Below are positions 3,554 through 63,912 of a DNA stretch of 64,000 nucleotides, in pieces; position 1 is the first letter of the stretch, and each line of letters starts with the position of its first letter. A program made the translations under genes and the position numbers. Source of the stretch: a virus (taxonomy: Duplodnaviria > Heunggongvirae > Uroviricota > Caudoviricetes). The notes under the pieces were generated by a model. It worked only from the letters and a program-made list of their open reading frames with translations, was not told the DNA's origin and did no database searches. The stretch lies in the IMG/VR virus record IMGVR_UViG_3300028888_000071, positions 22,638-86,637 of that record; one strand, 5' to 3'.

Positions 3554-3574
3554 TGATTTTTCTTTTATAAGCTA

Positions 3575-6050: not shown

Positions 6051-6065
6051 CAAAAATTTAAAGAC

Positions 6066-6236: not shown

Positions 6237-6237
6237 G

Positions 6238-6816: not shown

Positions 6817-6823
6817 AAGAACA

Positions 6824-7474: not shown

Positions 7475-7489
7475 GTGTCACACAAAAAC

Positions 7490-7530
7490 AAATGCACCAG
7501 ATTTCATAGATGATTTCTGGTGCATTTTTG
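7490..7530 (+). terminator. rho-independent terminator
   Basis: Stem aaatgcaccaga / tctggtgcattt (12 bp), then tttg. Confidence 0.6.
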
Positions 7531-7571
7531 TATGATTTCAATATTGTTTATTGTCTGGATATAAAGTGTCT

Positions 7572-7584
7572 TAGATGTCATCTA
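7572..7584. promoter_or_regulatory. palindromic element TAGATGTCATCTA (copy 1)
   Basis: Odd palindrome TAGATG-T-CATCTA in a convergent intergenic gap. Shares the 20-nt context AAGTGTC.TAGATGTCATCTA with the copy at 41747. Confidence 0.4.
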
Positions 7585-7586
7585 GC

Positions 7587-8195: not shown

Positions 8196-8196
8196 G

Positions 8197-8577
8197 TTAG
8201 AATGCGTATGATGTCACTACATAGTCATTTATGATGATGTCAACCACACACATGAATGAACTCTCAATTGTCCGTTCATAGAAGTTGACGTCACACAGCA
8301 CATTGTATCGAGAGTCTTCACTTGACATGACATATTTCCAGATCTGCATGTTGATTTCGTTCCGTATGAAGTCCGCGCTCACATTAGTCTCGAAAATGTA
8401 TTTCTCAAGATCCACACCGAAATCTGGCTGAGCAAGCAGGCTTCCTTTTGGCGTGTAAAGCATGATCTCGATTTTCTGAATTATGTTCACTAGCTTGTCG
8501 TGAATCTCAAGTGCCGTGTCAGAATATCTTGGCGACTCTTCTGATATGCAGAATATTTCATTTATCTGTTGTCCCAT
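8197..8577 (-). CDS. baseplate wedge protein, gp25/GPW-like
   Basis: 126 aa. LYTPKGSLLAQPDFGVDLEKYIFE matches the gp25/GPW core (T..GER...P.FG..L..llFe). Confidence 0.45.
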   Translation of the reverse strand: MGQQINEIFCISEESPRYSDTALEIHDKLVNIIQKIEIMLYTPKGSLLAQPDFGVDLEKYIFETNVSADFIRNEINMQIWKYVMSSEDSRYNVLCDVNFYERTIESSFMCVVDIIINDYVVTSYAF

Positions 8578-8916: not shown

Positions 8917-8932
8917 TTATTTATATAAATAA
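8917..8932. promoter_or_regulatory. 16-bp perfect palindrome TTATTTATATAAATAA containing T4-late-type TATAAATA in both orientations (putative bidirectional late promoter)
   Basis: The sequence is self-complementary. It lies 20 nt upstream of ATG 8951 (+) and about 20 nt upstream of the divergent gene starting at 8898 (-). Confidence 0.4.
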
Positions 8933-9484: not shown

Positions 9485-10108
9485 ATGAAAGTATTAGACA
9501 CAAACCAATTCATTTCTGAACGAATGAAAATCAGACCGGTGACTAATGCAGAACTGGACCAGATCCAGCAAGACATAGAAAACATGAAGTATGAACTCAC
9601 CGATAAAACAAAAAACATAGGAGACGGCACAACATTATATTGCATCAGAGCACTTAAAGACATCCCATCAGTAGAAGTCAAAAAAGGAGACTTAGGTGGC
9701 TGGATTGAGTCGTATGACAATCTAGACCAGAAAGGAGACTGCTGGGTTGCAGATGATGCTCGCGTGTTTGACCACGCTAGAGTGTATGGCAATGCTCAAG
9801 TGTATGGCCGTGCTGAAGTGTATGGCAATGCTAAAGTGTATGGCGATGCTAATGTATATAGTTTTGCTTATGTGTATGGTGACGCAGAAGTGTATGACAA
9901 TGCAAAAGTGTGTGGTCACACTTATGTGCACGATAAAGCTAAAGTGTATGACGCTGCCCAAGTCAATGGTTATGCTCATGTATTTGGCAACGCTAAAGTG
10001 TATAACAATGCTAAAGTGTATGGCAATACTTATGTATATGGCAATGCTCAAGTGCATGGCACTGCTGAAGTCAACTATGATGTCAAAGATAAAAGTATAG
10101 ACAAATAA
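9485..10108 (+). CDS. leader-domain + VYGNAx hexapeptide-repeat protein (family member 1)
   Basis: N-terminus MKVLDTNQFISERMKIRPVTNAELDQIQQD, then GDLGGWIESYDNLDQKGDCWVADDA, then about 50 tandem 6-aa units ((V)YGNAK/VYGDAE) encoded by 18-bp tandem repeats. Confidence 0.7.
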   Translation: MKVLDTNQFISERMKIRPVTNAELDQIQQDIENMKYELTDKTKNIGDGTTLYCIRALKDIPSVEVKKGDLGGWIESYDNLDQKGDCWVADDARVFDHARVYGNAQVYGRAEVYGNAKVYGDANVYSFAYVYGDAEVYDNAKVCGHTYVHDKAKVYDAAQVNGYAHVFGNAKVYNNAKVYGNTYVYGNAQVHGTAEVNYDVKDKSIDK

Positions 10109-10231: not shown

Positions 10232-11575
10232 ATGAGAACACGAACAATAGACAATTTTCTGGACGTTGACCAAAGGCAGTTCGCCGAATCTGTAGTTGAA
10301 GACCGTGCAATACCGAGCTGCATCGATGGCTTCAAGCCAGTGCAGAGAAAAATCATATACATCGCAAACAAGATATGGAAGACTGGAAACGAGAAGCCGA
10401 TGAAAGTGTTCCAGCTTGGCGGGCATGTCTCAAGCCAAGCGATGTATGCTCACGGCGATGCTTCACTCAACAAAGCAATCTCGCTCATGGGCACCACATA
10501 CAAGAACAGCCTCCCGCTGTTAGAAGGCCACGGGCAGTATGGCTCGCTCCGTGTGCCAGCAATGGGTGCTCCAAGATACATCGGCACGAAACTGTCCAAG
10601 AACTTCAGACTTCTCTACAAAGACTTCGAACTTCTCAAGAACAAGATAGACGAAGGCGTCGAGGTCGAGCCTGACTTCTTCTTGCCCATCGTCCCGACTA
10701 TACTGCTCAATGGAAGTTCCGGCATCGCAGTCGGATATTCGACTAACATCTTGAACAGGAACCCGCTTGATGTCATTGACGCTTGCACCGACTATCTCAA
10801 AGGCAAGAAAGTGAAAGAGCTCAAGCCGTGGTTCAGAGAGTTCAGCGGCACTTGGAAAAGAGATGACGAAATCGTGAACAAGTGGAACATATCAGGCGCA
10901 TACCAAGTAGTGAACACCACGACAGTGAAAGTCACTGAACTGCCGCCTGACATCACATTCGAGAAGTATGAAGACTGGCTCGAGACACTATGCACGAAAA
11001 AGACCATATTTGACTACGACAACAACAGTTCAAGCTCAGTCAACTACACATTGAAGTTCAATCGTGCGACTCTTAAAGACCTCATCTCTTCAGGCAAGCT
11101 GGAGAATGTGCTGAAAGTGAACTCGTCTGAGACAGAGAACATCGTCGCTATCGATGAGAACGGCAAGCTCAAAGTGTTCAGTCAAGCTGAAGACATCATA
11201 CCATATTTCTGTGAGTTCAGACTAAAATGGTACGACAAGAGAAAAGAATATATCATCAACAAATTGCAGCAAGAGCTTCTCGTGCTGTCAAACAAAGCAC
11301 GGTTCATCAAGTCAATCATCGACAAGAAACTCAAAGTAAACAATGTCCCGAAAGCAGAAGTGGTAGCTTGGCTTGCAGACAACAAGTTCGACAAGATGAA
11401 CGGCAGCTTTGACTACCTGACGAACATGGCTATCTACAATCTGACAAAAGAGAAATATGAAGAACTCCTCAAACAGAAAGAAGCGAAAGCCAAAGAACTT
11501 GATGACATGAAGAAACGTGTTCCGAAAGACATGTACATGGATGATTTGAAAACCCTTAGAAAAAGTGTTGCGTGA
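10232..11575 (+). CDS. type II DNA topoisomerase, GyrA-N-terminal-like subunit (T4 gp52-like)
   Basis: FKPVQRKIIY...GHVSSQAMYAHGDASLNKAISLMG...GQYGSL...GAPRYIGTKLS parallels GyrA KPVHRR...YHPHGD...GNFGS...AMRYTEARL, including the active-site Tyr. Confidence 0.7.
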   Translation: MRTRTIDNFLDVDQRQFAESVVEDRAIPSCIDGFKPVQRKIIYIANKIWKTGNEKPMKVFQLGGHVSSQAMYAHGDASLNKAISLMGTTYKNSLPLLEGHGQYGSLRVPAMGAPRYIGTKLSKNFRLLYKDFELLKNKIDEGVEVEPDFFLPIVPTILLNGSSGIAVGYSTNILNRNPLDVIDACTDYLKGKKVKELKPWFREFSGTWKRDDEIVNKWNISGAYQVVNTTTVKVTELPPDITFEKYEDWLETLCTKKTIFDYDNNSSSSVNYTLKFNRATLKDLISSGKLENVLKVNSSETENIVAIDENGKLKVFSQAEDIIPYFCEFRLKWYDKRKEYIINKLQQELLVLSNKARFIKSIIDKKLKVNNVPKAEVVAWLADNKFDKMNGSFDYLTNMAIYNLTKEKYEELLKQKEAKAKELDDMKKRVPKDMYMDDLKTLRKSVA

Positions 11576-11985
11576 TGTTTAGCGATTCCAAAAACATAAA
11601 ATGCACTGATGACTTGAACTGCGTCATATACAACCAGAATGCTTTTCTTGGCAAAGATGCTGGGTTAGCGTATCCGACTTCTGTGCAGTTTTCTGCGTCT
11701 TTCGTTCTGGACAGAAGGCCTCCTGATGTGACGTTCAACACATTGTACATAACGACAGACAACGAAAAGGTGAATTTCTACAATTCTACAATAGCTAGGA
11801 TAAGAAGATACCAGACATGCGGCAGAACAGTCCATATTGATGTGTCATATTTCTCAAATATGCTCGACAACACTATAGCTGAAGTATTGGTGAACCACGG
11901 AAAAGATATCAAATGCATAGCAAATGTAACCGAAAACGGTGGAGTAAGAATAAAAATATTGTTAGAACATGTTCAGCGACAATGA
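11572..11985 (+). CDS. MFSDN-family small protein (137 aa)
   Basis: Starts MMFSDSKNIKC. C-terminus ...IKILLEHVQ, paralogous to 12447-12836. Confidence 0.5.
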   Translation: MMFSDSKNIKCTDDLNCVIYNQNAFLGKDAGLAYPTSVQFSASFVLDRRPPDVTFNTLYITTDNEKVNFYNSTIARIRRYQTCGRTVHIDVSYFSNMLDNTIAEVLVNHGKDIKCIANVTENGGVRIKILLEHVQRQ

Positions 11986-12211
11986 CAACCTTAAAGATTT
12001 CGTGAAAGAAGACTTCATCCCGGAAACAGAAATGGATCCTCCGAGAGCAGAGCTTTTTTTCTACAATCTCATCGACAGTGAAAACATCAGCAAACTGATG
12101 AACGACTCAGACAGTTTGCGTGTGATGCCACAGACTAGTTTCACAGAATCATTTGCAGACTATGCGAAAACATTTGACGAATTCATCGTTGACTGGGACT
12201 CTAAAATTTGA
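11969..12211 (+). CDS. MFSDN-family small protein (80 aa)
   Basis: Starts MFSDNDNLKDF. The start is embedded in the GAACATGTTCAGCGACAA junction. Confidence 0.45.
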   Translation: MFSDNDNLKDFVKEDFIPETEMDPPRAELFFYNLIDSENISKLMNDSDSLRVMPQTSFTESFADYAKTFDEFIVDWDSKI

Positions 12212-12444
12212 GAGAAATGTTCAGTGACAATCCAAAACTTATAGACAATCATTTCTTGAAAGCCGGATACACATATTTCTGCAAAAAAGACTATGATGCG
12301 ATACCGCTCATGTATACTTATTATGGAACTAAATTCCACAAAGGAGAGTCATATGTATGCTTATTTGATGGCGTGTTGATGAATAAACAAGGCGGCTTCT
12401 TTTTTGAAAAAGACGTGAAGAATCCTAAAGAATATTTTGAATAG
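12208..12444 (+). CDS. MFSDN-family small protein (78 aa)
   Basis: MREMFSDNPKLID. Overlapping start/stop. Confidence 0.45.
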   Translation: MREMFSDNPKLIDNHFLKAGYTYFCKKDYDAIPLMYTYYGTKFHKGESYVCLFDGVLMNKQGGFFFEKDVKNPKEYFE

Positions 12445-12446
12445 CC

Positions 12447-12836
12447 ATGTTTAGTGACAACGAAAATCTCAAATGCATCATAACAGACAATCTTAACTGT
12501 GTCATTTATAGTCAAAGATTCATACCAGTAACTCACAACTTGCAGTTTTCGATATCTTTTTTTCTTGGCAAAAACAAAACAGCACCGGTGCTCACATCCC
12601 AAAACATAATAATCAAGACTGATGACAATTGCATAAACCGCAAAAGCTGCACTCTTGGCAAAGTGCTGAGATACAAGACGTGTGATAACAATGCTGCTGC
12701 TGATGTTTTATATTTTGCAATAGGCAGTGAACTTACACGGATACTGTTCAACAACGGCAAAGAATTGAGATGTGAAGCATACTGCACAGAAGCTGGCGCA
12801 ATCGAACTAAAAATATTTTTAGAACATGTTCAGTGA
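12447..12836 (+). CDS. MFSDN-family small protein (129 aa)
   Basis: MFSDNENLKCIITDNLNCVIYSQRF... ends ELKIFLEHVQ. Paralog of 11572-11985. Confidence 0.5.
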   Translation: MFSDNENLKCIITDNLNCVIYSQRFIPVTHNLQFSISFFLGKNKTAPVLTSQNIIIKTDDNCINRKSCTLGKVLRYKTCDNNAAADVLYFAIGSELTRILFNNGKELRCEAYCTEAGAIELKIFLEHVQ

Positions 12837-13077
12837 CAACAAAAGTTTAGTCGGCAAGATAGACACAGTTGACCCGGAAGTATTGAAGAATCATTACAGG
12901 TTCCACAAGTGCAGAAAATGCAAACTAGTTTATGCATATGATATAGATAAGCCAGACAACTCAATCATAGACTATGATGATGACTGGCACTATGACTGTC
13001 CGTATTGTGGAGCTGTCTGGTACAGGCCAGCAAGTCTAAACTTTCTTGGCTGCATAATCAGGAATATATTTTCTTGA
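12826..13077 (+). CDS. MFSDN-family small protein (83 aa), Cys-rich C-terminus
   Basis: MFSDNKSLVGK... CRKC...CPYCG (zinc-ribbon-like). Confidence 0.45.
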   Translation: MFSDNKSLVGKIDTVDPEVLKNHYRFHKCRKCKLVYAYDIDKPDNSIIDYDDDWHYDCPYCGAVWYRPASLNFLGCIIRNIFS

Positions 13078-22384: not shown

Positions 22385-23380
22385 TCAACGGTTACGTGTG
22401 CTTTGTGGCTCATTGAATCCAGGAACCTTCACTGTGTAGTCGATGTCTTTGTCTTGGTTAGACATGATGTTCGTCTTCGGGAACATCTTGTCAAACGTGA
22501 TGTCGCTGTGCACTTCACCGCCTTTGATTTGCTCATCAAGCTCGGTGATGTTGTGTTCAGTCCCGTCACCGACATGAAATTTCGTGAGAAGGCCGCCAGG
22601 ATAGATTCCGACATTTCCATACTCGTCAGAGCGGAATGTCATTATCGTGCCTTCGTTCTTCTTCACCATGTCGTATATCTCATCGAATATGATTCCATGC
22701 TCAAACACTGGCATGAAGCTTTTCACCTCTATGGCGAAAGACACTTTGTATTCTTTCTGCCCGTCCATCGCGAACTCAAGCGGCCGTTCTTGTGAGTAGT
22801 CGACTGGAAGCTGGTAAGAAGCCTGGACATGCATCATTCCCAAGTCAACATAGAACACATTGACTGCATACAGCTTTGACATGACTGATTCTGTCACCTT
22901 CAGCATTTCAAGCTGAGACGAGCAGACCATGTCACAAGTGAACGAAAGGTTGAGCGGCAAGAAGCAAGTGCGGAGATAGAATGTCTTCAGCATCCCGTCT
23001 ACTTCATGCACGAATCTCGCTTGTATGAACTTGTTCATCTGGCTGCCAGAATCTATAGATATGGACTGTATGTTGAGGACGCCTCTCGGCACTTTCTCAT
23101 AGTCGCCGATTGCTTTGCCGTTGTCGATTGAGTCATACATGAACTCGTCTTTCAAGAATCTCTCACTGCCTGTGATCGAGTGCATGAAAGGGATGTCCAC
23201 TCTCTCAGAAGTGCCGTCTGCAAGATGCTGGTATATGTATATCTTGTCTCTCAATTCAGCAAGCAAAGCTACGATTATGTATCTCACTACTGAATTGTCA
23301 TAGTTCTTCGTCTGGTTGTAAGTGTTAGCTGACATATAAACATATATAAAATATTTATATTCCAGTATATAAATAAACAA
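22385..23380 (-). CDS. hypothetical protein (331 aa), possibly a virion structural protein
   Basis: Same strand and frame as the terminase C-piece but separated by TGA-TAA-TAA. No terminase motifs. Confidence 0.5.
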   Translation of the reverse strand: MFIYILEYKYFIYVYMSANTYNQTKNYDNSVVRYIIVALLAELRDKIYIYQHLADGTSERVDIPFMHSITGSERFLKDEFMYDSIDNGKAIGDYEKVPRGVLNIQSISIDSGSQMNKFIQARFVHEVDGMLKTFYLRTCFLPLNLSFTCDMVCSSQLEMLKVTESVMSKLYAVNVFYVDLGMMHVQASYQLPVDYSQERPLEFAMDGQKEYKVSFAIEVKSFMPVFEHGIIFDEIYDMVKKNEGTIMTFRSDEYGNVGIYPGGLLTKFHVGDGTEHNITELDEQIKGGEVHSDITFDKMFPKTNIMSNQDKDIDYTVKVPGFNEPQSTRNR

Positions 23381-23395: not shown

Positions 23396-24034
23396 ATGAA
23401 AATATTAGACGCCAGCCAGTTTGTTTCAGAACGAATGAAAATCAGACCAGTGACTAATGCAGAACTGGATCAGATCCAGCAAGACATGAATAGTGACAAG
23501 TATGAACTCACTAATGAAACGATATCGTACGAGGGACATGTTTTGTATCGTATCAAAGCTTTGAAAGCCATTCCATCAATGAAAGTGAAGAAAGGAGATC
23601 TGGGTGGTTTTGTAGAGTCATATGACAATTTAGATCAGAAAGGAAACTGCTGGGTGTGTGGAAACGCTTGGGTGTATGGAAATGCTTTTGTACATGGAAA
23701 TGTTAAAATATATGGCAATGCTGAAGTGTTTGGCAATGCTGAAGTGTTTGACAATGCTAAAGTGTACAGAAATGCTACAGTATGTGATTATGCTAGAGTG
23801 TATGGCAATGCTGAAGTGTATGATTATGCTTATGTGCGTGATAATGCTAAAGTGTATGGCACTGCTAAAGTGTATGACAATGCTATAGTGAATGGTTATG
23901 CTAAAGTGTATGACAATGCGGAAGCGTATGGCAGTGCTCATGTATATGATTGTGCTTACGTGTATGGCAATGCTGAAGTGTGCGGTTATGCTGAAGTCAA
24001 TTATGATGTAAATAAAGGAAAAATTGATAAATGA
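23396..24034 (+). CDS. leader-domain + VYGNAx hexapeptide-repeat protein (family member 2)
   Basis: MKILDASQFVSERMKIRPVTNAELDQIQQDM plus repeats. Upstream ...tatataaataaacaaacaag contains TATAAATA. Confidence 0.7.
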   Translation: MKILDASQFVSERMKIRPVTNAELDQIQQDMNSDKYELTNETISYEGHVLYRIKALKAIPSMKVKKGDLGGFVESYDNLDQKGNCWVCGNAWVYGNAFVHGNVKIYGNAEVFGNAEVFDNAKVYRNATVCDYARVYGNAEVYDYAYVRDNAKVYGTAKVYDNAIVNGYAKVYDNAEAYGSAHVYDCAYVYGNAEVCGYAEVNYDVNKGKIDK

Positions 24035-24855
24035 AAATATTGGACACAAGTCAGTTTGTTTCTGAACGCATGAAGATCAGGCCAGTGACTAATGCTGAAC
24101 TGGACCAGATTCGGCAAGACATGAATGGCGACAAGTATGAGCTCACTGACAAAACAATTAAAATAATACGTGATGGAAAAACATTACACTGCATCAAAGC
24201 ATTGAAAGACATTCCATCTAAAGGAGTCAAAAAAGGAGACTTAGGTGGCTGGATTGAGTCATATGACAATCTTGACCAAATGGGAGACTGCTGGATTGCA
24301 GACAATGCTTGGGTCTGGAACAATGCTAAAGTGTCTGGCAATGCTAAAGTGTATGACACTGCTTGGGTGCACGATAATGTTGAAGTTTATGGCAATGCTG
24401 AAGTGTATGGTGACACTAATATGTGGGGCAATGCTAAAATATATGGCAATGCTAAAATACACGGCAATGCTAAAATACACAGCAATGCTGAAGTGTATGA
24501 CGATGCTAGGGTGTTTGACAATGCTGATGTGTTCGGCCTAACTCGAGTGTATGAAAATGCTAAAGTGTATGGTGATGTTGAAGTGTATGGGAATGCTAAA
24601 GTGTATGGTGATGTTGAAGTGTATGGGAATGCTAAAGTGTACGGAAAAACTTTTGTGCACGATAATGCAAAAGTGTATGGCAATGCTGAAGTGTGTGGTG
24701 CAAGTGAAATATATGGGAATGCTAAAGTGTACGGAAAAACTTTTGTGCACGATAATGCAAAAGTGTATGGCAATGCTGAAGTGTGTGGCGCAAGTGAAAT
24801 ATATGGAAATGTTAAAGTAGATTATGAGGTCAAAGATAAACTTATAAATAAATAA
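24031..24855 (+). CDS. leader-domain + VYGNAx hexapeptide-repeat protein (family member 3)
   Basis: ATGA overlap with member 2. The N-domain and first repeats are nearly identical to member 6 (33572-34291). Confidence 0.7.
   Translation: MKILDTSQFVSERMKIRPVTNAELDQIRQDMNGDKYELTDKTIKIIRDGKTLHCIKALKDIPSKGVKKGDLGGWIESYDNLDQMGDCWIADNAWVWNNAKVSGNAKVYDTAWVHDNVEVYGNAEVYGDTNMWGNAKIYGNAKIHGNAKIHSNAEVYDDARVFDNADVFGLTRVYENAKVYGDVEVYGNAKVYGDVEVYGNAKVYGKTFVHDNAKVYGNAEVCGASEIYGNAKVYGKTFVHDNAKVYGNAEVCGASEIYGNVKVDYEVKDKLINK
24631..24810 (+). repeat. 2 x 90-nt near-perfect tandem duplication inside the repeat array
   Basis: 24631-24720 versus 24721-24810 differ at 2 positions. Both encode AKVYGKTFVHDNAKVYGNAEVCGASEIYGN. 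Confidence 0.8.
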
Positions 24856-26213: not shown

Positions 26214-27071
26214 TTAATTGTCCAGACGTTTGTTGTCTTTTATGTCATATGTCACCTTGCTTGAACCGTTGATGGTAGAGTTTCCTGATATTTCAGCATA
26301 TCCATACACTTGAGCATTTCCATACACTTCAGCGTTGTCATACACTTCAGCATTGTCAAAGACTTGAGCATTTCCATACACTTTAACATGTCCATATAGT
26401 TTGCATTTGCCATGCACATAAGTTTTGCCGTACACTATCGCATCGCCGCGTATGGTAGCATATCCATATATTTCTGCATTATCTTTAATACATGCGTTCT
26501 CACACACATAGCACTTGCCATGCACATTAGCATTTTCTAGTAATTTAGCATTGTCATACACTTCTGCGCTTCCCCACACTCTTGCGTGATCATTGACTTT
26601 GGCTTCGCCATACACTTTAGCTTCGCCAAACACGTTAGCATAAGAACTGATGATAGCATCATCAAACACTTGAGCATCACTATACACTTTAGCATTGTCA
26701 GATATATGAGCTTCACCATACACTTGAGCGCGGTCACATACTGTCGCATTTCCAGACACTAAAGCGTTGCCATACACTTTAGCATCATCATACACGCAAG
26801 CTTTATCTGCAACCCAGCAGTCTCCTTTCTGGTCTAGATTGTCATACGACTCAATCCAGCCACCTAAGTCTCCTTTTTTTACTCCTTTAGATGGAATGTC
26901 TTTCAATGCTTGAATACGATGCAAAACGTGTCCAACATAATATTGCATTCCATCAGTGAATTCATACTTGTCGGCATTCATGTCTTGCCGAATCTGGTCC
27001 AGTTCTGCATTAGTAACTGGTCTGATTTTCATGCGTTCTGAAACAAACTGGCTAGCACCCAATATTTTCAT
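26214..27071 (-). CDS. leader-domain + hexapeptide-repeat protein (family member 4)
   Basis: MKILGASQFVSERMKIRPVTNAELDQIRQDMNADKYEF... plus repeats. The upstream reverse complement reads tttataaataaacaaatattgatcattATG (TATAAATA box). Confidence 0.7.
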   Translation of the reverse strand: MKILGASQFVSERMKIRPVTNAELDQIRQDMNADKYEFTDGMQYYVGHVLHRIQALKDIPSKGVKKGDLGGWIESYDNLDQKGDCWVADKACVYDDAKVYGNALVSGNATVCDRAQVYGEAHISDNAKVYSDAQVFDDAIISSYANVFGEAKVYGEAKVNDHARVWGSAEVYDNAKLLENANVHGKCYVCENACIKDNAEIYGYATIRGDAIVYGKTYVHGKCKLYGHVKVYGNAQVFDNAEVYDNAEVYGNAQVYGYAEISGNSTINGSSKVTYDIKDNKRLDN

Positions 27072-28502: not shown

Positions 28503-28712
28503 TTATAGTAACATCGTTTTCTTGTAGTTGGTGTCAAGACTTTCTTTGAGATAAGATGACATGACTTTGCCATTGTTGACTATGCTTTCGTAAATGTCCT
28601 TTGGAACATTGACATATTTCTCGACTGAGCCATCGTTGTATTTGACGATGAGGTCACGTGTTATCTCTGAATAGATGACACTTGTTATCTGCGGGGTTGA
28701 ATCCATTAACAT
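28503..28712 (-). CDS. hypothetical protein (69 aa)
   Basis: Small ORF, overlapping start of the upstream gene (operon). Confidence 0.4.
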   Translation of the reverse strand: MLMDSTPQITSVIYSEITRDLIVKYNDGSVEKYVNVPKDIYESIVNNGKVMSSYLKESLDTNYKKTMLL

Positions 28713-29845
28713 AGCGTTAGTTTTATTTTTCTATTTTCAATATCCATCGAGGAAATCTTTACATTGACGTGGTCGCCTGTTCGCACTGCGACTGTCATCG
28801 GCAAGATTCCAATCACATTGTATTTCAGCTGGACAAGAATGAACTTCTTGCTTGAGCCGAGAACGACGCCATCCATCGTCATTCCAACTTTGAACTCTTT
28901 GGACACATTCTCTCTCCACAGTTCTCTCGTCTTCCAAGTCTGAGTCAGCAGCAACTGCCCGTTCTGCTCGTCATCGATCTTGAACTTCAGTTCTGTCTTT
29001 TCGATTTCAATTTTGTCATTGTTGAATAGTTCTTTAGTCTCATCGTCCATGTCAGTATATACCAGTTTGCCAGCGAGGCATTCGTTGAAAGTGATGAGCA
29101 CATAGTCGTGTTTCTTCAATGTGACTACGCCAGTGTATTCGGTTTCTCTGTCATCAGTCATGACACTGTTCAACACGGTGGGCTTGATTGCTTCCAAGAA
29201 AGCGACGTGTGACACGACAACCATGTCTCTTTTCGCGTTGTACATGGTCGGGATCACCATGATGTTAGAGCCGACGATTGACTCGAAGTCAGACAATCTG
29301 TAGAGACTTGCAGTCGAACCTGGCATGAAGCAGCGGACGCCCTGTATAGAAACATAGTATCCGCCATTTATGCATTCATCTATGTGCGCGGTGTATGCAG
29401 ATGAGGTGTTGTGTGATACAGCAGCAGCACGAAGCTCGTTCTTTATGGCAAGCTTCATGGAGTCTTTGATAGACACATTGATGCCATTCTTGACGCAAGC
29501 TGCAATCGGCACTTTGTAAGTGACGCCTTCATCAAATGACTCTCTCACATCATCGGGCTCTTTGTCCACTGGAATCGTGCAGTCGTACTTGCTGTTGATG
29601 TTCACGATGAACTTGTCGTCTTGCTTGCAGATTCCAACATTGTTTATTAGAGTGTTCTTGTTTGCAGTCTCGAAACTGACGATGTCGTCAATTTCAGAGC
29701 CGCCCATTGTGGACCGGTAAGCATTGATGACGTCAAGAATATAAGGCTGGTTTGAAATGATTTTCTCGCCGTTGTCTAACGGCACGTTGACTGTCTCCTG
29801 AACAAGCGGATCATCGCCAACGATTCTCACTTTTTGAATGTACAT
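28706..29845 (-). CDS. protein with several S1/OB-fold-like repeats (putative RNA-binding)
   Basis: Three segments with S1-like pattern (G..V.G.V...... V.L. .GV.G.LP ... G..V.VKV...D....I.LS): YYVSIQGVRCFMPGS, YTGVVTLKKHDYVLITFNE.LAGKL, GVVLGSSKKFILVQLKYNVIGILP...GDHVNVKISSMDIENRKIKLT. Confidence 0.3.
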   Translation of the reverse strand: MYIQKVRIVGDDPLVQETVNVPLDNGEKIISNQPYILDVINAYRSTMGGSEIDDIVSFETANKNTLINNVGICKQDDKFIVNINSKYDCTIPVDKEPDDVRESFDEGVTYKVPIAACVKNGINVSIKDSMKLAIKNELRAAAVSHNTSSAYTAHIDECINGGYYVSIQGVRCFMPGSTASLYRLSDFESIVGSNIMVIPTMYNAKRDMVVVSHVAFLEAIKPTVLNSVMTDDRETEYTGVVTLKKHDYVLITFNECLAGKLVYTDMDDETKELFNNDKIEIEKTELKFKIDDEQNGQLLLTQTWKTRELWRENVSKEFKVGMTMDGVVLGSSKKFILVQLKYNVIGILPMTVAVRTGDHVNVKISSMDIENRKIKLTLC

Positions 29846-32846: not shown

Positions 32847-32873
32847 ATAAATAAACAAATGAATATATGCAAT

Positions 32874-33566
32874 ATGAGAATATTAGACACTGACCAATTC
32901 ATTTCTGAACGAATGAAAATCAGACCTGTCACGAATGCTGAATTGGATCAGATCCAGCAAGACATGAAAGACATGAAGTATATGCTCACAAGTGAAACAC
33001 AGAATCATAGTGGCCATGTTTTGTATCGTATAAAAGCTTTGCAAGACATTCCATCAATGGACGTCAAGGAAGGAGATCTTGGTGGCTGGGTTGAGTCATA
33101 TGACAATCTAGACCAGAAAGGAGACTGCTGGATTGCAGATGAAGCTAAAGTGTATGGCAATGCTAAAGTGTATGACAGTGCTTTAGTATATGGCAATGCT
33201 GAGGTATATGACAATGCTCAAGTGTATGACAAAGCTGAAGTGTATGGCTACGCTTATGTGTGGGGCAGTGCTAAAGTATATGAAGATGCTAAAGTGTATG
33301 GTAAAGCTTCAGTGTATGGCAATGCTGAAGTGTATGGCAGTGCTCAAGTGTATAACAAGGGTCATGCATATGGCAATGCTAAAGTGTTTGGCAATGCTTG
33401 TGTGTATGGCAAAGCTAAAGTGTATGACAATGCTGAAATGCATGGCAATGCTTGTGTGTTTGGTGATGCTCAAGTGTATGGCTACGCTTATGTGTGGGGC
33501 AGTGCTAAAGTGTATGGAGATGCTAAAATAGATTATGAGGTCAAAGATAGGAATATAGACAAATAA
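32874..33566 (+). CDS. leader-domain + hexapeptide-repeat protein (family member 5)
   Basis: MRILDTDQFISERMKIRPVTNAELDQIQQDM... Upstream tttttttataaataaacaaatg contains TATAAATA. Start taken at 32874 (the ORF track extends to 32826). Confidence 0.65.
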   Translation: MRILDTDQFISERMKIRPVTNAELDQIQQDMKDMKYMLTSETQNHSGHVLYRIKALQDIPSMDVKEGDLGGWVESYDNLDQKGDCWIADEAKVYGNAKVYDSALVYGNAEVYDNAQVYDKAEVYGYAYVWGSAKVYEDAKVYGKASVYGNAEVYGSAQVYNKGHAYGNAKVFGNACVYGKAKVYDNAEMHGNACVFGDAQVYGYAYVWGSAKVYGDAKIDYEVKDRNIDK

Positions 33567-33571: not shown

Positions 33572-34291
33572 ATGAAAGTATTAGATATAAACCAATTTGT
33601 TTCTGAACGAATGAAAATCAGACCTGTCACGAATGCAGAACTGGACAAGATCCAGCAAGACATGAAAGACAAGATCCAGCAAGACATAAAAGACATGAAG
33701 TATGAGCTCACTGATGAAACAACAAAAACAATAGATGGTGTAACATTATATCGCATCAAAGCTTTGAAAGACATTCCATCTAAAGGAGTCAAAAAAGGAG
33801 ACTTAGGTGGCTGGATTGAGTCATATGACAATCTTGACCAAATGGGAGACTGCTGGATTGCAGATAATGCTTGGGTCTGGAACAATGCTAAAGTGTCTGG
33901 CAATGCTAAAGTGTATGACACTACTTGGGTGCACGATAATGTTGAAGTTTATGGCAATGCTGAAGTGTATGGTGACACTAATATGTGGGGCAGTGCTAAA
34001 GTATATGAAGATGCTAAAATACACGGCAATGCTAAAGTGGGCGGGAATGCTAAAGTGTTTGGAAATGCTCAAGTGTATGGATATGCTGAAGTATATGGTG
34101 ATGCTTTAGTGTATGGTGATGCTTGTGCATATGGCAAAGCTAAAGTGTATGGCAAAGCTGAGGTGGGTGGAAACTCTAAAGTGTATGACAACGCTATAGT
34201 ACGTGGCAATGCTCATGTATATGGCACTACTGAGGTGCACGGCAATGCTAAAGTCAATTATGTAGTTAAAGATATAGATGTAAACAAATAA
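33572..34291 (+). CDS. leader-domain + hexapeptide-repeat protein (family member 6)
   Basis: Leader carries an internal IQQDMKDKIQQDIKD duplication. The C-terminal 45 aa are identical to member 7. Confidence 0.7.
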   Translation: MKVLDINQFVSERMKIRPVTNAELDKIQQDMKDKIQQDIKDMKYELTDETTKTIDGVTLYRIKALKDIPSKGVKKGDLGGWIESYDNLDQMGDCWIADNAWVWNNAKVSGNAKVYDTTWVHDNVEVYGNAEVYGDTNMWGSAKVYEDAKIHGNAKVGGNAKVFGNAQVYGYAEVYGDALVYGDACAYGKAKVYGKAEVGGNSKVYDNAIVRGNAHVYGTTEVHGNAKVNYVVKDIDVNK

Positions 34292-37725: not shown

Positions 37726-38193
37726 ATGAGAATATTAAACACTGACATTTTTGTTTCTGAGCGAATGAAATTCAGGCCAGTCACGAATGCTGAACTGGAC
37801 AAAATAAAAATATACACAGAATTGCATGAACATAAGCTGAAGCAAGGAGACATAGTATATTATCGTGACATGCCGCATCTTGTCATAATGGAAGAACATT
37901 TATACAAACAAGTTTTGCTAGCAAGCAGCCTATCATATTATGATTTCACAGATGGAGTCATGGCATGTAAACGCAATATTGGTTCCAGCACTAATTTCAT
38001 GTTAGTTTCTGATTATCATAGTGAGTCACTTAAAACCAAAACGTCAGATGTTAATTTTGACATACAAAAAATCTATCGCGGGTCTATAGACATGACCAGG
38101 TCAACCGACATGAGAAAACTCATATGCGTAGATAATCTGAAACAACTACAAAAAGACTTCACTCTTATATTTGACAATGGCAAGTGGCTGTGA
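37726..38193 (+). CDS. divergent leader-family member 9 (155 aa)
   Basis: MRILNTDIFVSERMKFRPVTNAELDKIKI..., then unrelated sequence. Confidence 0.55.
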   Translation: MRILNTDIFVSERMKFRPVTNAELDKIKIYTELHEHKLKQGDIVYYRDMPHLVIMEEHLYKQVLLASSLSYYDFTDGVMACKRNIGSSTNFMLVSDYHSESLKTKTSDVNFDIQKIYRGSIDMTRSTDMRKLICVDNLKQLQKDFTLIFDNGKWL

Positions 38194-41135: not shown

Positions 41136-41176
41136 AAATACAACATTAAAAATTCAAGATATTTATAAATAATTCC

Positions 41177-42435: not shown

Positions 42436-43560
42436 TTATTCGTCTATTTTTTTGTCTTTGACTTCATAATCGACTCTAGCATTGCCACACACTTCAGCCT
42501 TGCCACACACTTCAGCCTTGCCATACACTTGAGCGTTGTCATACAACATAGCCTTGTCATACACATAAGCACGTCCATACACTTTAGAATATCCAAACAC
42601 ATAAGCACGTCCATACACTTGAATGCTGCCATACATTTCAGCATTCCCGCCCACACGAGCATCGCCGTACACTTTAGCTTTGCCATACACTTTAGCATTG
42701 TCAAACACTTCAGCTTCTTCATATATGTCAGCATTCCCGCGCGCTTCAGCATTCCCGCCCACTTTAGCACTTGCATGCACTTTAGCATTCCCATACACCT
42801 TAGCACTCCCACGCACACAAGACATGCCGTACACTTGAGCATCCCCAAACACTTTAGCATCACCATACACTTCAGCATCACCTTTCACTCTAGCATTGCC
42901 ATACACTTGAGCGTTCCCATATACTTTAGCATATCCATACACTTCAGCAGCGTCATGCACTTTAGCGTTTCCGTACACTTGAGAACATCCATACACTTCA
43001 GCATATTCATACACTTTAGCAACGCCATACACCTCAACAGTCTCATGCACTTTAGCATTGCCATACACCTCAGCATATCTGAACACTTTAGCATTGTCAT
43101 GCACTTCAGCATAACCATACACTTGAGCGCCGTCATACACTTGAGCTCTACCATGCACTTGAGCATGGCCAAACACTAAAGCATTGCCATACACTTTAGC
43201 ACTGCCATACACTTGAGCACTGTCACACACTTGAGCATTCTTATACACACAAGCATTTTCAGACACTTTAGCTTCATCATACACAAAAGCTTCATCTGCA
43301 ACCCAGCAGTCTCCTTTCTGGTCTAGATTGTCATATGACTCAACCCAGCCACCCAAGTCTCCTGCATTCACTTTCCTTGACGGGATGTCTTTCAAAGCTT
43401 TTATACGATGCAAAACATGGCCACTATGATTCTGCGTTTCAGCGGTGAGCTCATACTTCAGATCTTTCATGTCTTGCTGGATCTGGTCCAGTTCAGCATT
43501 CGTGACTGGCCTGATCTTCATGCGTTCTGAAACAAATTGCTCAGTGTCAAGTATTTTCAT
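42436..43560 (-). CDS. leader-domain + hexapeptide-repeat protein (family member 10, longest: 374 aa)
   Basis: MKILDTEQFVSERMKIRPVTNAELDQIQQDMKDLKYEL..., then about 45 six-residue units. Confidence 0.7.
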   Translation of the reverse strand: MKILDTEQFVSERMKIRPVTNAELDQIQQDMKDLKYELTAETQNHSGHVLHRIKALKDIPSRKVNAGDLGGWVESYDNLDQKGDCWVADEAFVYDEAKVSENACVYKNAQVCDSAQVYGSAKVYGNALVFGHAQVHGRAQVYDGAQVYGYAEVHDNAKVFRYAEVYGNAKVHETVEVYGVAKVYEYAEVYGCSQVYGNAKVHDAAEVYGYAKVYGNAQVYGNARVKGDAEVYGDAKVFGDAQVYGMSCVRGSAKVYGNAKVHASAKVGGNAEARGNADIYEEAEVFDNAKVYGKAKVYGDARVGGNAEMYGSIQVYGRAYVFGYSKVYGRAYVYDKAMLYDNAQVYGKAEVCGKAEVCGNARVDYEVKDKKIDE

Positions 43561-43569: not shown

Positions 43570-44295
43570 TTATATTATGTCTTCGGGAAACAGCGAGCGA
43601 ATGAATTCGATCCAGATTTTGACTACTTTGTCTGCTAATGCTTCGAGCACTTGCTTGTTTCCAGACACTCTGTTCCAGTCACATATGATTATGCCGAAAT
43701 TGTTGTCATTGTTTTCGCCATCGCCATCTACATCATCATAAGCAACTATGAACTCGTGCGTGTTCATTTCTTCAGCATAGTTCTTTTTGACAAAGTCAGA
43801 AAAGCGTCTGTACAGTTCTTTGTCCACATTGAGCTTGAAAGAATTCTCGTCATACACCTCTATTTCTTTCATGCTCTTGACAGCATTCCACTGCTCATCT
43901 CCAAACTGTCCAGAAGGCAAGTTCAAATCTTCAAACGGTATCTTTGGGGTGTTCACTACTTTGTGACGGTCGACATTGTATGAGTGCTCTTCATGTCTTG
44001 TCACATGTTCTGAACTATAATAGATGTAAAGCACACGGTCAAACGACAGCCACTTCTTGTCAGTTATCGTGTTGTCACGGTTTATCCCGTAGGTGAGCCA
44101 TCTGTATCTGGAAGCAATCTGCTCGCCGATCTCTTCAAGCATCTTCTCTTTCTTGTCTCTCTGCTTGCGCAAGACTTCACCACCGCGCTTGTGCTTGAAC
44201 TCAAACGTGTCGAAGCGGTCCACCATCCTCTGGTCCAACGCGCCCGCTGCTTGAGCTTCAGCCAAAAAATTGTCTATATTGAATATGTATTTCAT
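43570..44295 (-). CDS. hypothetical protein (241 aa)
   Basis: ORF. Confidence 0.5.
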   Translation of the reverse strand: MKYIFNIDNFLAEAQAAGALDQRMVDRFDTFEFKHKRGGEVLRKQRDKKEKMLEEIGEQIASRYRWLTYGINRDNTITDKKWLSFDRVLYIYYSSEHVTRHEEHSYNVDRHKVVNTPKIPFEDLNLPSGQFGDEQWNAVKSMKEIEVYDENSFKLNVDKELYRRFSDFVKKNYAEEMNTHEFIVAYDDVDGDGENNDNNFGIIICDWNRVSGNKQVLEALADKVVKIWIEFIRSLFPEDII

Positions 44296-44301: not shown

Positions 44302-45828
44302 TTATTTGTTTATCACATCTGTCTTTGCTTCAGAATGCTTGCTGTTCACGTGCTTCTTTGATGTGTCCACGACTGCGTTCATTTTTTTGAGAAGATCTCT
44401 ACACACATTCATCGACTTGTTCACGTTGTGCTTGTCGCCGATGTCGCTCAACTTCACTCTGATGTTCTTGTATGTCACGCCATTGTGAGTGATGTCAATC
44501 CTTGTCGTCGGCTGCTCGACTCGCTCGCCTGCTGATGAGCGGAAGCCCACCATGCCGTCGTACTTAGTCTTGAACTTCTTGCCGAACAGCGTCCATTCTA
44601 CAGTGCCTTCTTCTTTGTCGACTTTGACGTCATTTGCTAATATAGAAGTCAACGATCCGTTGCCTGTGTCAAGCAATGCGGTCAGAGGCTTGTCGAAGTC
44701 ATTTATGTAGAATATTTCCCTGTATCCGAGAACCATCTTTTCTGGCTCATTGCTGGTCTCATCATTCTTCCCGAATGCTTCTTTCATGTTGCGTATGAAC
44801 TCCGTTGCCGGGTCTTTGTCAGACACTGCGGTTATGCCTTTCAGTGATGGAGTAGAGTTCACTTCAATCACATACATCTTTCCAGTGTTCTTGTCTTTCA
44901 TTATGTCCACGCCGCACCAAGCGCATCTAACTGACTTCGCAGCTTCAATCGCAAGTTTCTTCTCTTCTTCAGTCGCTTCATAGTATTCATAGTCTGCGCC
45001 AAGTGAAGCGTTTGAGCGGTAGTCATTGTCGAGTTTTTTTCTCTTCATAGCAGCAAACACCACATATTTGTCGCCTGAGCGGTAAACGGGATCACTTTCT
45101 TTTCTGAGGACATGCAAGCGCAAGTCATAGTCAGCATCGATTCTCTCTTGGACGATTATGTCTGTGCAGTCGAGAACATCAGAATTGGAAAGTATGTATT
45201 GCGCGACTCCTTTCAGGCTTTTCGGGCCATCAAACAGAAAGACTCCATTGCCCTGGCTGCCCTTGTTCACTTTGGCAATCACCGGAAAATCAAAATCGAT
45301 AGTTTTTATGACAGCATCAAAGTCATCAATGTTCCTGCTGTTCAAGATCAGAGACTTTGGCTGCGGCACTTTGTCTATATTGAATTTCTCTATAGTGAGA
45401 GCTTTGTCTCCACTTGTCTTTATCGAAGATGGAGTGTTTATCACTAGAAAGTCGTTGCTGCTTAGAATCTTGCAGTTCTTCTTCACACTCGGGACTGCCA
45501 TTCTTGCATGCCGCTTTATCACAAGCGTGTTGTTTTTCTCTAACTTGTACATGCGGTCTCCCATGCACAGCACGCAAGAGCCGTCTATGACTTTTATGAA
45601 ATTGTCCTCTTTCGCGAAATTGACATATATGAACCGTGCATTGCATTTTGCGCACGCGTTCTTCAGATACTGTATCTCATACATGCGTTCACTGTTTCCG
45701 GAAACGCAAAGCACGACAAACTGGTCAGAACTCATATTAAAATCTACATTTTCTATATCTTGGTCAAATGACTGCTCAAAAACACGATTTCCGCCAACGA
45801 CAGTTTCATATGATTTGATATAATTCAT
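44302..45828 (-). CDS. fusion of RimK-like ATP-grasp ligase (N-terminal) and retropepsin-like (RimB/DUF785-type) domain (C-terminal)
   Basis: ATP-grasp signatures: IIVQERIDADYDLRLHVL...RSNASLGAD...WCGVDIMKDKNTGKMYVIEVNSTPS. C-terminal LTALLDTGNGSLTSILA is an aspartic-protease DTG motif. The upstream reverse complement carries TATAAATA. Confidence 0.5.
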   Translation of the reverse strand: MNYIKSYETVVGGNRVFEQSFDQDIENVDFNMSSDQFVVLCVSGNSERMYEIQYLKNACAKCNARFIYVNFAKEDNFIKVIDGSCVLCMGDRMYKLEKNNTLVIKRHARMAVPSVKKNCKILSSNDFLVINTPSSIKTSGDKALTIEKFNIDKVPQPKSLILNSRNIDDFDAVIKTIDFDFPVIAKVNKGSQGNGVFLFDGPKSLKGVAQYILSNSDVLDCTDIIVQERIDADYDLRLHVLRKESDPVYRSGDKYVVFAAMKRKKLDNDYRSNASLGADYEYYEATEEEKKLAIEAAKSVRCAWCGVDIMKDKNTGKMYVIEVNSTPSLKGITAVSDKDPATEFIRNMKEAFGKNDETSNEPEKMVLGYREIFYINDFDKPLTALLDTGNGSLTSILANDVKVDKEEGTVEWTLFGKKFKTKYDGMVGFRSSAGERVEQPTTRIDITHNGVTYKNIRVKLSDIGDKHNVNKSMNVCRDLLKKMNAVVDTSKKHVNSKHSEAKTDVINK

Positions 45829-45910
45829 TTCAAGTATACTTTCTTTTTATATTTATAAAAACAGTAAAATAACGAATGGTTTTTATTATTTGTTATAAAA
45901 CAAATAGAAT

Positions 45911-46419: not shown

Positions 46420-47217
46420 ATGAAAAAAAGTTTTAAAATGAAAGACTGCAACAAACAGATGTTGCAAACCATTATCAAACAGATGGTCGTTGTGGACAAG
46501 TATGTCAATCTGCGCATTGGCCCAGAATACACCGACTCATCTTCTTATCTGCCTGCTCACGATGTAGTGAAGTATATGCGTATCGAGAACAGTGCGATGT
46601 TCAGCAACGAGTACACTCTGGACAAGCCCATCAGAATGTCATTCATCATGGGGACGAAACTCTTGCTTCTCCTCAACCAGTTCGAGAACGACAACGAAAT
46701 CGATCTCGAAATCGTCTATGACGCTTCTTCTGAGGAAGACGAGTACTATGCACTGAAAGTCATCATGTCAGGACAGAACCTTGACATCACTGAAGTGTGT
46801 GCTGACCAGAGATTCGACACAATCAACATCAAGCCCATTTCTGATGAGGTGATGGTGAGCCTCTTGAACACAGATGATTCTGTGATGTGCTTTGACATCA
46901 CGAAAGACGACATGCGTGCTATCAAGTCTCTCGGCAACATCGACAGAGAGTGCAAGAGATTCGAGTATGTCGTGAAGAACAACACACTTTCAATCAGAGA
47001 AAGAAGCAACGATGAAGATGAAGACAGCGAAATCTACAACAAAGTGATTTCGACAGTCGAGGCTGGCGACAATGTGTATATGTGCAGCAAGAATGTTTTC
47101 TCTGTCATCAACAACGTCACCGACTACAATGTGTGCATCTGTGACGGCGACATGAGCAAAGTAGTCTACACACACGAAGAAGACGGCATCTGCTTGAATG
47201 TAATCGCAAGTATCTAA
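46420..47217 (+). CDS. hypothetical protein (265 aa); weak resemblance to a sliding-clamp (gp45-like) segment
   Basis: TKLLLLLNQFENDNEIDLEIVYDA faintly resembles gp45 GFLGILSLVNDDAEISQSEDG. Position is near replication/nucleotide genes. Very tentative. Confidence 0.3.
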   Translation: MKKSFKMKDCNKQMLQTIIKQMVVVDKYVNLRIGPEYTDSSSYLPAHDVVKYMRIENSAMFSNEYTLDKPIRMSFIMGTKLLLLLNQFENDNEIDLEIVYDASSEEDEYYALKVIMSGQNLDITEVCADQRFDTINIKPISDEVMVSLLNTDDSVMCFDITKDDMRAIKSLGNIDRECKRFEYVVKNNTLSIRERSNDEDEDSEIYNKVISTVEAGDNVYMCSKNVFSVINNVTDYNVCICDGDMSKVVYTHEEDGICLNVIASI

Positions 47218-63666: not shown

Positions 63667-63912
63667 ATGTTCAGTGACAACAAATTCCTAAAGGCAAGTG
63701 TCATAAACAAAGGCGAAAATTTAGAATATGTGATAGAAAAAATCGACAGGACAGCTATTGCGCCAATAATAACAGTTTATTGGGTGTCAAAAGATTTCAA
63801 GTTGTACACGACAGTAATATCAAAAAAAGTATTGCCAAACGGTGTCCGTTCATTCGCGGAAGGGTTGACACGTATAGCATATTCAGACAACTTCAAACGG
63901 TTTCTACTATAA
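63667..63912 (+). CDS. MFSDN-family small protein (distant copy of the 11.6-13.1 kb array)
   Basis: MFSDNKFLKASV. The DNA start cgaaATGTTCAGTGACAACAAA matches the array junction sequence. Confidence 0.45.
   Translation: MFSDNKFLKASVINKGENLEYVIEKIDRTAIAPIITVYWVSKDFKLYTTVISKKVLPNGVRSFAEGLTRIAYSDNFKRFLL

Follow-up and report, generated by a model that had tools for sequence, protein, structure and literature searches.

What would a phage gain from an enzyme that joins, in one polypeptide, a ligase resembling the one that extends ribosomal protein S6 with glutamate and a protease resembling the one that shortens such tails? This question is raised by a single gene in a 64,000-nucleotide (nt) stretch of viral DNA (IMG/VR record IMGVR_UViG_3300028888_000071, positions 22,638 to 86,637), here called the window and numbered from its first letter. 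The gene lies at 44302–45828 on the minus strand, starts with ATG and, with the stop codon included in these coordinates, encodes 508 amino acids (aa). An initial annotation, made from the letters of the window only, read its product as a RimK-like ATP-grasp ligase fused to a retropepsin-like domain; the open reading frame (ORF) and the motifs quoted there are found exactly on the minus strand. Here, we report that the protein, termed RimKB for its RimK-then-RimB-like order, almost certainly consists of these two domains and belongs to a phage family known since 2008. We propose, with a probability of roughly 0.5, that it is a self-contained enzyme that adds and trims poly-α-glutamate (poly-α-Glu), the host ribosomal protein bS6 being the most likely target.

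Domain identities of the fusion protein

The N-terminal module, aa ~51–346 (44791–45678, minus strand), was assigned to the RimK-family ATP-grasp ligases by TIGR00768, Pfam and Foldseek, with pre-ATP-grasp, central and C-terminal subdomains. In its widest extent the complete ATP-grasp spans aa ~36–350. The Pfam RimK model (PF08443) matches aa 141–346 with E = 9.4e-27 and 94.3 bits against a cutoff of 21, and PHROG 2599, 'ribosomal protein S6 glutaminyl transferase', is the sole PHROG match of the fusion protein. The nearest solved sequences to this module are the Pseudomonas and E. coli RimK proteins, followed by ArgX/LysX. A full-length AlphaFold2 (AF2) model computed from a 31-sequence alignment has a mean predicted local distance difference test score (pLDDT) of 82.5; its top 25 Foldseek matches are RimK structures and ArgX, with RimK entries 5zct, 7qys, 7qyr, 4iwx and 5zk6 at template modeling (TM) scores of 0.82–0.86 (target-normalized, ~315 columns; 0.86 for 5zct) and ArgX/LysX ranking after RimK. 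In our alignment of 31 family members (A1), K142, K186, G193, G195, Q227, D235, R237, R263, R271, N273, D308, E322 and N324 are invariant in all 31 sequences, and these residues match motifs in Pseudomonas RimK (7qys/7qyr). The motif set is intact, i.e., two lysines, the Gly-rich loop, D235-x-R237, FRSN (R271-x-N273), D308 and E322-x-N324, the last of which is the Mg/ATP-binding 'EVN' motif E322-V-N324 encoded at 44857–44865 on the minus strand. The substrates of the closest solved relatives are all C-termini of proteins or peptides: RpsF for RimK (5zk6) and LysW for ArgX/LysX.

The initial annotation had proposed profile searches with, among others, the RimK and DUF785 models. The RimK model gave the PF08443 match above; the DUF785 model (PF05618) has no match in the window protein at E ≤ 10, neither in the full-length sequence nor in the isolated C-terminal region. 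Because the only Pfam match for the C-terminal region alone at that threshold is FCSD_central, which is spurious, a route through family profiles and structure was needed. NCBIfam models RloA1 and RloA2 give weak partial matches (1.8e-6 and 2e-3), far under cutoff. Homologues at 27–36% identity equal the window protein in length and architecture, and PF05618 is among their precomputed assignments; 11 of the 17 relatives in the C-terminal-domain alignment (A2) match PF05618 individually (best 1.6e-13). Searched against the PDB, the A2 profile reaches 9g59 (RloA2; 2.8e-15), 9g58 (RloA; 1.4e-12) and 2pma (Legionella DUF785; 2.1e-12), the matches spanning profile positions 2–130 of 134 with the DTG motifs aligned. 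When the domain was modeled by itself with AF2 (pLDDT 85), the top Foldseek matches were 2pma, RloA and RloA2 (E 2e-8 to 5e-7, TM 0.68–0.79), followed by feline immunodeficiency virus protease and then by pepsins or pepsin-family lobes. Profile and structure searches alike keep this region in the retropepsin fold, where the initial annotation had placed it by its DTG motif.

The domain so defined, a retropepsin-like all-beta domain of the DUF785/PF05618 (RimB/RloA) type, covers aa 365–490 (44359–44736, minus strand) and, as in RloA, is basic (isoelectric point 9.2). Its predicted catalytic motif, D387-T-G-N390 (44659–44670, minus strand), lines up with the DTG seen in the RloA structures; D387, G389 and N390 are invariant in A1, and the catalytic Asp is present in 171 of 173 relatives. 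Together, the profiles and the predicted structures leave us nearly certain of both identities, RimK-family ATP-grasp and DUF785 retropepsin-like domain.

Some relatives (P0088, P0139–P0141, P0154, P0162, P0163, P0169, P0179 and P0192) contain two to five tandem copies of the retropepsin-like domain. In these proteins DTGA is usually kept in the last copy only, the other copies being degenerate; the arrangement recalls the duplication behind two-lobed pepsins.

Proposed activity and target

DUF785 was without known function in 2008 (PMC2530865). The initial annotation had mentioned a small retropepsin-like protein whose gene often adjoins that of bacterial RimK, and this partner is now known: the DUF785 protein encoded beside rimK is RimB, an aspartic endopeptidase specific for poly-Glu (Little et al. 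2025, PMC11957791). Its residue D31 is essential; RimB removes poly-Glu tails from RpsF, cuts internal E8 stretches and stimulates both the ATPase of RimK and its poly-α-Glu synthesis, and RimK and RimB together make free poly-α-Glu in vitro and in vivo (PMC11957791). A natural RimB-RimK hybrid, RimBK of Desulfotalea psychrophila, is proteolytically active (PMC11957791). RloA proteins share the fold and cleave poly-Glu via a basic channel formed by K46, R92, R114 and R137, RpsF-8E being cut (PMC12239564).

By homology with these proteins, glutamate would be the residue added and poly-Glu the polymer cleaved, and dimerization, activation of the ligase, timing of expression and, above all, the substrate are modeled here on the same footing. 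The ATP-grasp module would use ATP to activate a C-terminal α-carboxylate as an acyl-phosphate and add L-Glu stepwise, the acceptor being either a protein that ends in Glu or free Glu, which would yield poly-α-L-glutamate. The retropepsin domains of two subunits may pair within the RimK oligomer and form a two-Asp active site; this dimer would cut within poly-Glu and set the length of the tail or polymer, and the domain may also stimulate the ligase, by analogy with RimB. The fusion would fix a 1:1 stoichiometry and free the module from host regulators. Expressed from a T4-late-type promoter, the enzyme would be cytoplasmic, and a Glu tail on the C-terminus of host bS6 would reshape both the 30S platform and translation in infected cells. 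On the analogy with RimK and RimB, we consider the combined Glu-ligase and poly-Glu-peptidase chemistry rather probable; host bS6 as the target is, on that analogy, a tentative choice. That a phage module glutamylates a ribosomal protein, as the initial annotation suggested, we infer purely by this comparison. If bS6 is indeed glutamylated by a phage, it would be a conceptual parallel to the phosphorylation of S6 and S1 by the T7 kinase.

Evidence against the proposal and alternative explanations

Several observations weigh against this proposal. With TIGR00768 (rimK_fam), aa 51–346 score 122.2 bits, under the cutoff of 143.4, so that membership extends to the Pfam domain and stops short of the curated NCBIfam subfamily; the equivalog model for S6–L-glutamate ligase (NF007764) gives 50.7 bits where its cutoff is 331. 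Other equivalog models are likewise all far under their own cutoffs (MptN 90 of 350 bits, LysX 74 of 276, CofF 51 of 300). The RimK family also includes the cofactor ligases MptN and CofF as well as LysX, and these score comparably; with equivalog scores so far under cutoff, sequence assigns the family and its chemistry, not the substrate. The window protein has DTGN, versus DTGA in all characterized relatives. In addition, three poly-Glu contacts of RloA (K46, R114 and R137) were mapped onto the relatives via a hidden Markov model alignment, and they are partly changed. The equivalent of R114 in the 'RPV' motif is Arg in 97 of 99 other fused members and Gln throughout the clade of the window protein (13 of 13, P0001–P0013; hereafter the query clade), and the equivalent of K46 is not basic, being Gly in the window protein, nonbasic in its clade and Gly or Ser in the other fused members. 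With R114 replaced by Gln and the K46 position nonbasic, the poly-Glu specificity could be altered. Among its genomic neighbors, which belong to replication and nucleotide metabolism, the fusion gene has no constant companion that encodes a ribosomal or acidic-tail partner. Lastly, the host itself is assigned by indirect signs, given below.

The remaining contact behaves differently from R114. The equivalent of R137 in the 'DR' motif is Arg in 93 of 99 other fused members, and in the query clade it is Lys in 11 proteins and Arg in two; the Lys of the window protein is a conservative change. The clade also retains D-T/S-G-N, with D, G and N each present in 13 of 13. Judged from the aligned sequences, the predicted catalytic residues are conserved in the query clade and the predicted substrate contacts differ.

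The Asn of DTGN follows the order of the domains. It comes after DTG in all phage-type relatives, fused and single-domain, and in 13 of 13 fusions with the RimK domain first (K-then-B) in GTDB assemblies. DTGA is found in both fusions of the reverse order (B-then-K; L116 and L141, which come from Saccharibacteria) and in the motif-bearing stand-alone copies adjacent to RimK. Domain order thus correlates with motif, K-then-B with DTGN and B-then-K with DTGA.

If the poly-α-Glu chemistry is kept, the target may still be something other than S6: a phage protein, e.g., one of the virion, a scaffold or an internal protein; some other host protein whose last residue is Glu; or poly-α-Glu in free form. 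We give this alternative a modest chance. The score far under the S6-ligase equivalog cutoff agrees with it, the fusion gene has the same late-type box as the capsid gene, and free poly-α-Glu is what RimK and RimB yield in vitro and in vivo (PMC11957791). The homologue in Yersinia phage YerA41 is middle-expressed and, after its detection by liquid chromatography–tandem mass spectrometry in purified virions, annotated as virion-associated (PMC7354516); its packaging is uncertain, because the same virion proteome also holds ribonucleotide reductase (RNR) and many replication enzymes (PMC7354516), which makes carry-over likely. As for possible acceptors, late proteins of the window with acidic C-termini include one of 676 aa ending ...CDDCEEE and one of 56 aa ending ...KSEE, and nine viral loci encode, two genes downstream of the fusion, a small acidic protein with an EEEEE run. 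However, these acidic tails amount to anecdotal evidence, and the family as a whole has no conserved partner: an acidic C-terminus is found in only three proteins of the window, none with a run of at least four Glu, and among the neighbors of the fusion gene in 78 viral loci we found no universal partner or substrate gene, only replication-module genes and clade-specific small ORFs.

The peptidase half may instead be the part that has changed. The retropepsin domain of the query clade would then have lost poly-Glu cleavage and act only as an allosteric activator or oligomerization module, leaving a ligase without trimming. A separable RimK-stimulating function is known for RimB (PMC11957791), and both the clade-wide Gln at the R114 position and the failure of Pfam to detect PF05618 in the query clade would suit such a domain; but a protease that had lost its activity would not be expected to retain D-T/S-G-N so strictly, the R137 position is still basic, and the AF2 prediction of the fold is a confident one (pLDDT 85). 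We consider a purely activating domain unlikely.

Least probable, in our opinion, is that the ATP-grasp module joins Glu or another amino acid to a small-molecule or nucleotide-linked acceptor (a cofactor tail as with MptN/CofF, or a DNA hypermodification precursor) with the retropepsin domain as a regulatory or scaffolding appendage: MptN (90 bits) and CofF (51 bits) do score in the range of the S6-ligase model, a dCMP deaminase and a clamp-like gene adjoin the window gene, RNR and dUTPase genes lie near the homologue of YerA41, whose thymidine is hypermodified, a thymidylate-synthase-like gene and a T4 gp1-type deoxynucleoside monophosphate (dNMP) kinase gene occur in locus L096, and gp43, regA or clamp-loader genes in many loci, but a position within a phage replication module says little, protein C-termini are the substrates of the nearest structural relatives, and an invariant Asp in a peptidase fold across ~170 relatives argues for a peptide substrate. 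We know of no ATP-grasp enzyme in thymidine hypermodification pathways. A role in DNA hypermodification was judged unlikely, as the YerA41 modification is apparently an oligosaccharide and the peptidase Asp is invariant. An enzyme that adds and trims poly-α-Glu, with bS6 as its foremost candidate target, is the explanation we prefer.

Distribution and genomic neighborhoods

Is the fusion peculiar to this window? With the C-terminal-domain profile, 3,720 clusters (50% identity) were found at E ≤ 1e-3 among 1.84 billion representatives, and 112 of the 217 proteins retrieved have the RimK-then-retropepsin order. IMG/VR contains at least 580 stretches that code for relatives; among the best 80 viral loci of these, 77 have the fusion as a single ORF, on contigs of up to 430 kb. 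The RimK-retropepsin fusion architecture is under selection, and large phages from oceans, guts and soils carry the gene family in abundance. Over 78 viral loci, the gene frequently falls in the T4 replication module, its clustered neighbors including gp43 in 29, RegA in 13, the clamp loader in nine and the clamp in 11, the window among them. One member, P0018, adjoins genes for a family-B DNA polymerase, DnaB, uracil-DNA glycosylase and ClpP, and another, P0013 of the query clade, lies on a 290-kb contig with a Gp23 capsid gene; both contexts are phage-like. A megablast search of the locus against 50,697 phage genomes gave no match.

In the region 8785–12855 of L001 (ERZ27274643:k141_843774, 290 kb), the fusion gene of P0013 is flanked on both sides by IS605-type OrfB/TnpB genes (Cas12f-like), which suggests local mobility in a jumbo phage.

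A search of GTDB genomes with a single protein, P0017, found no relatives; relatives in GTDB genome assemblies were recovered with a tighter alignment (A3). The idea that the K-then-B order is strictly phage-specific was rejected, since 13 GTDB assemblies carry it and it is reported from Halobacteria too (PMC2530865). Please note that several of these GTDB contigs are small fragments of metagenome-assembled genomes and that one, of 410 kb, has phage-type neighbors. On this contig (L096, ONIZ01000001.1, filed under 'uncultured Firmicutes bacterium RUG343'), the K-then-B fusion gene, in the region 3159–8453, adjoins a divergent thymidylate-synthase-like gene and the T4 gp1-type dNMP kinase gene; the contig may be a huge phage or a prophage binned as a bacterium.

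Gene context and probable host of the window phage

Outside the two domains, the protein has two regions of low confidence. The N-terminal ~31 residues (45736–45828, minus strand) are predicted to be disordered (pLDDT <50 for aa 1–31) and are clade-specific, variable and gapped in A1; the N-terminal sequence MNYIK(S/P)Y is kept in close homologues, which supports the start codon. The inter-domain linker, aa ~352–364 (44737–44775, minus strand), has pLDDT values of 58–69, falling below 50 at aa 357–362, and its length varies in A1.

A protein 100% identical to the window protein (P0001) is present on several independent metagenomic contigs, the longest of 121.6 kb. On these contigs a dCMP deaminase gene, a gene for a 252–265-aa protein and a GroES-like gene lie upstream and divergent, and a gene for a 241-aa protein lies downstream. 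In the window this 241-aa gene (43570–44295, minus strand) begins 6 nt past the fusion stop, and it is the same neighbor in three independent P0001 contigs; its product has no match in Pfam or PHROG. Between the fusion gene and the two genes downstream of it, neither a terminator-like site nor a further TATAAATA box was found, and none of the intrinsic terminators sought on the flanks of the fusion gene is convincing. The 241-aa gene and the fusion gene are probably co-transcribed.

On the upstream side, the ORF at 46420–47217 (plus strand) encodes 265 aa without a Pfam or PHROG match and falls into one cluster with proteins of ~255 aa that 10 other viral loci encode near the fusion. From its position beside clamp-loader and polymerase genes, the product looks like a T4 gp45-type sliding clamp.

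The T4-late-type promoter-like motif of the fusion gene, a TATAAATA box at 45850–45857 on the minus strand, was located by reading the sequence; 21 nt separate its end from the ATG, and it lies in the 82 bp between the divergent fusion and dCMP deaminase genes. The initial annotation had called this box late-type, and the motif proved genuine: the window holds 21 copies against 1.37 expected (15-fold), none of 100 shuffles reaches 21, the copies nearly always end 16–24 nt before a start codon, and four lie upstream of the major capsid gene. We infer promoter function for the box and late timing for the fusion gene. Other sites are, for example, at 8918–8931, 23352–23375, 41160–41171 and 61187–61547, with back-to-back copies in divergent intergenic regions.

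The phage origin assumed by the initial annotation holds, the window encoding a terminase, a gp23-type major capsid protein, topoisomerase II, Mu Gam, dCMP deaminase and GroES; no tRNA genes were found in it. The closest capsid relatives are those of an uncultured 462-kb phage (44%) and of the Prevotella Lak megaphages (33%), followed by Tenacibaculum, Chryseobacterium and Flavobacterium phages. A Shine-Dalgarno (SD) core lies upstream of four of 76 genes, which equals background, and the leaders are 48% A; such SD-poor, A-rich leaders are the Bacteroidia style of initiation. Since the leaders lack SD cores and are A-rich and the capsid relatives are Lak-type, a Bacteroidota host is likely. 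The virus is a large, T4-related phage.

Other genes in the window

The gene at 28706–29845 (minus strand) encodes a 379-aa protein that the initial annotation called a multi-S1-repeat protein. Its residues 64–350 align to bS1 (~20–305 of S1, several S1 domains) among PDB sequences with E ~3e-6, which partly bears out that reading; Pfam S1 is sub-threshold. A TATAAATA box lies 43 nt upstream. An SD-less system may rely on S1, which makes a phage protein of this type noteworthy.

The bS6 of Bacteroidia carries a C-terminal helix, specific to the phylum, which contacts the final nucleotides of 16S rRNA and forms part of the pocket that sequesters the anti-SD (PMC7797042). A poly-Glu tail on bS6 could plausibly alter initiation, and one may imagine that RimKB and the bS1-like protein together rebuild the 30S platform, poly-Glu on Bacteroidota bS6 beside the 16S 3' end altering the choice of start sites, with DTGN and the R-to-Q change tuned to a bS6 target rather than to generic poly-Glu. 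We regard this extension as very unlikely; because the phage genes are themselves SD-less, no benefit from freeing the anti-SD is obvious.

A further group of genes stands out by number. At least nine paralogues in 64 kb share the N-terminus MKILDTxQFVSERMKIRPVTNAELD, followed by beta-solenoid repeats (9485–10108, 23396–24034, 24031–24855, 26214–27071 on the minus strand, 32859–33566, 33572–34291, 37726–38193, and 42436–43560 and 57396–57812, both on the minus strand). They match the Pfam YdcK beta-solenoid, bactofilin and hexapeptide families and PHROGs 5070/7964 (unknown function); several have their own TATAAATA box, and one lies two genes downstream of the fusion gene, probably on the same transcript. 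Six further paralogous ORFs of 75–136 aa, consecutive or dispersed at 11575–13077 and 63667–63912, all start with MFSDN. The gene at 3638–5767 (plus strand) encodes 709 aa with an AAA+ ATPase region and Peptidase_M41 (FtsH-type, E = 5e-24), i.e., a phage FtsH-like protease. Two ~430-aa paralogues, at 1713–3002 (plus strand) and 57909–59216 (minus strand), share the N-terminus MKKIKW(G/A)CIQPLTGGMY, and the product of the former matches a PHROG DNA methyltransferase family.

The 676-aa protein with the acidic end is encoded at 54827–56857 (minus strand), has no family match and has a late-type box 20 nt upstream. Its middle is coiled-coil-like and its C-terminus is extremely acidic and Cys-rich, ending ...CDNNNCDDCEEE. 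The protein could be scaffold-like, and formally it is a candidate RimK-type acceptor.

Comparison with known systems

The nearest bacterial counterparts are the Pseudomonas rimABK system and the RimBK hybrid of D. psychrophila. They too pair a RimK ligase with a retropepsin-like DTG peptidase, whose fold and catalytic Asp recur in the phage domain. The order is reversed, however: RimB is N-terminal in the bacterial RimBK, whereas in the phage protein the RimK part (aa ~51–346) comes first and the retropepsin-like part (aa 365–490) follows. The phage protein also differs from the Pseudomonas system in having neither a RimA (EAL) partner nor a cyclic di-GMP context. RloA/RloA2 (9g58, 9g59) and Legionella Lpg0085 (2pma) are the best profile and structure matches of the C-terminal domain and share the position of the DTG. 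RloA and RloA2 are secreted, periplasmic, stand-alone proteins with signal peptides, in contrast to the internal domain of a cytoplasmic fusion, and they have DTGA where the phage protein has DTGN; of their contacts, K46 and R114 are not conserved in the query.

Among cultured phages, homologues are carried by Yersinia phages YerA41 and GN1 and by Pelagibacter phage Mosig. Those of YerA41 (gp066, g112, 'ribosomal protein modification protein') and Mosig ('glutathione synthetase') cover both domains, at 28–30% identity over aa 37–490 and aa 121–499; they are distant in sequence, come from other hosts and bear other annotations. Cyanophage and YerA41 annotations repeat the RimK assignment. A LysW-like protein encoded near the YerA41 homologue (YerA41_074) was considered as a LysW-type carrier and dropped, as it is without an acidic C-terminus (it ends ...QEYVVL).

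The closest precedent was published by Monier, Claverie & Ogata (2008, Genome Biol 9:R106), who found RimK on more than 100 marine phage-like contigs from the Global Ocean Sampling, T4-related and flanked by regA, polB, clamp-loader, gp17 and gp18 genes (PMC2530865). Several of these phage RimKs have a C-terminal DUF785, a domain found at the N-terminus in Synechococcus and at the C-terminus in Halobacteria, and a modification of S6 or of translation was proposed, analogous to the action of the T7 kinase on S6 and S1 (PMC2530865). The window phage fits this family in its architecture (RimK followed by a C-terminal DUF785), its gp23-type capsid, terminase and TATAAATA boxes, its clamp-like neighbor and its relatives at 27–36% identity; the likeness extends to the T4-related background, the nearby replication genes and the proposed role in S6 or translation, and our IMG/VR scan recovers the same regA/gp43/clamp neighborhood along with the 77 of 80 fused loci. 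The fusion itself is therefore already known, having been described in 2008 and being widespread in big phages, and the novelty implied by the initial annotation was overstated (PMC2530865). For the window itself, what we offer is a sound annotation rather than a discovery, in a family that has been described bioinformatically since 2008.

Several things set the window protein apart from the 2008 family. It falls in a divergent clade, at 27–36% identity to the mainstream members, where PF05618 goes undetected by Pfam and where the R-to-Q change is clade-specific, and its phage is related to the Lak-type huge phages of Bacteroidota, not to cyano- or pelagimyophages. New here are the divergent clade itself, which belongs to a huge-phage lineage of Bacteroidota type, the post-2025 equation of DUF785 with RimB, the correlation of DTGN and DTGA with domain order, and the clade-specific R-to-Q change. 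Biochemical work from 2016 to 2025 explained both halves of the bacterial system, so that assays exist (RpsF-E8 cleavage, poly-α-Glu synthesis and coupled ATPase), and among the cultured carriers, YerA41 and Mosig are available.

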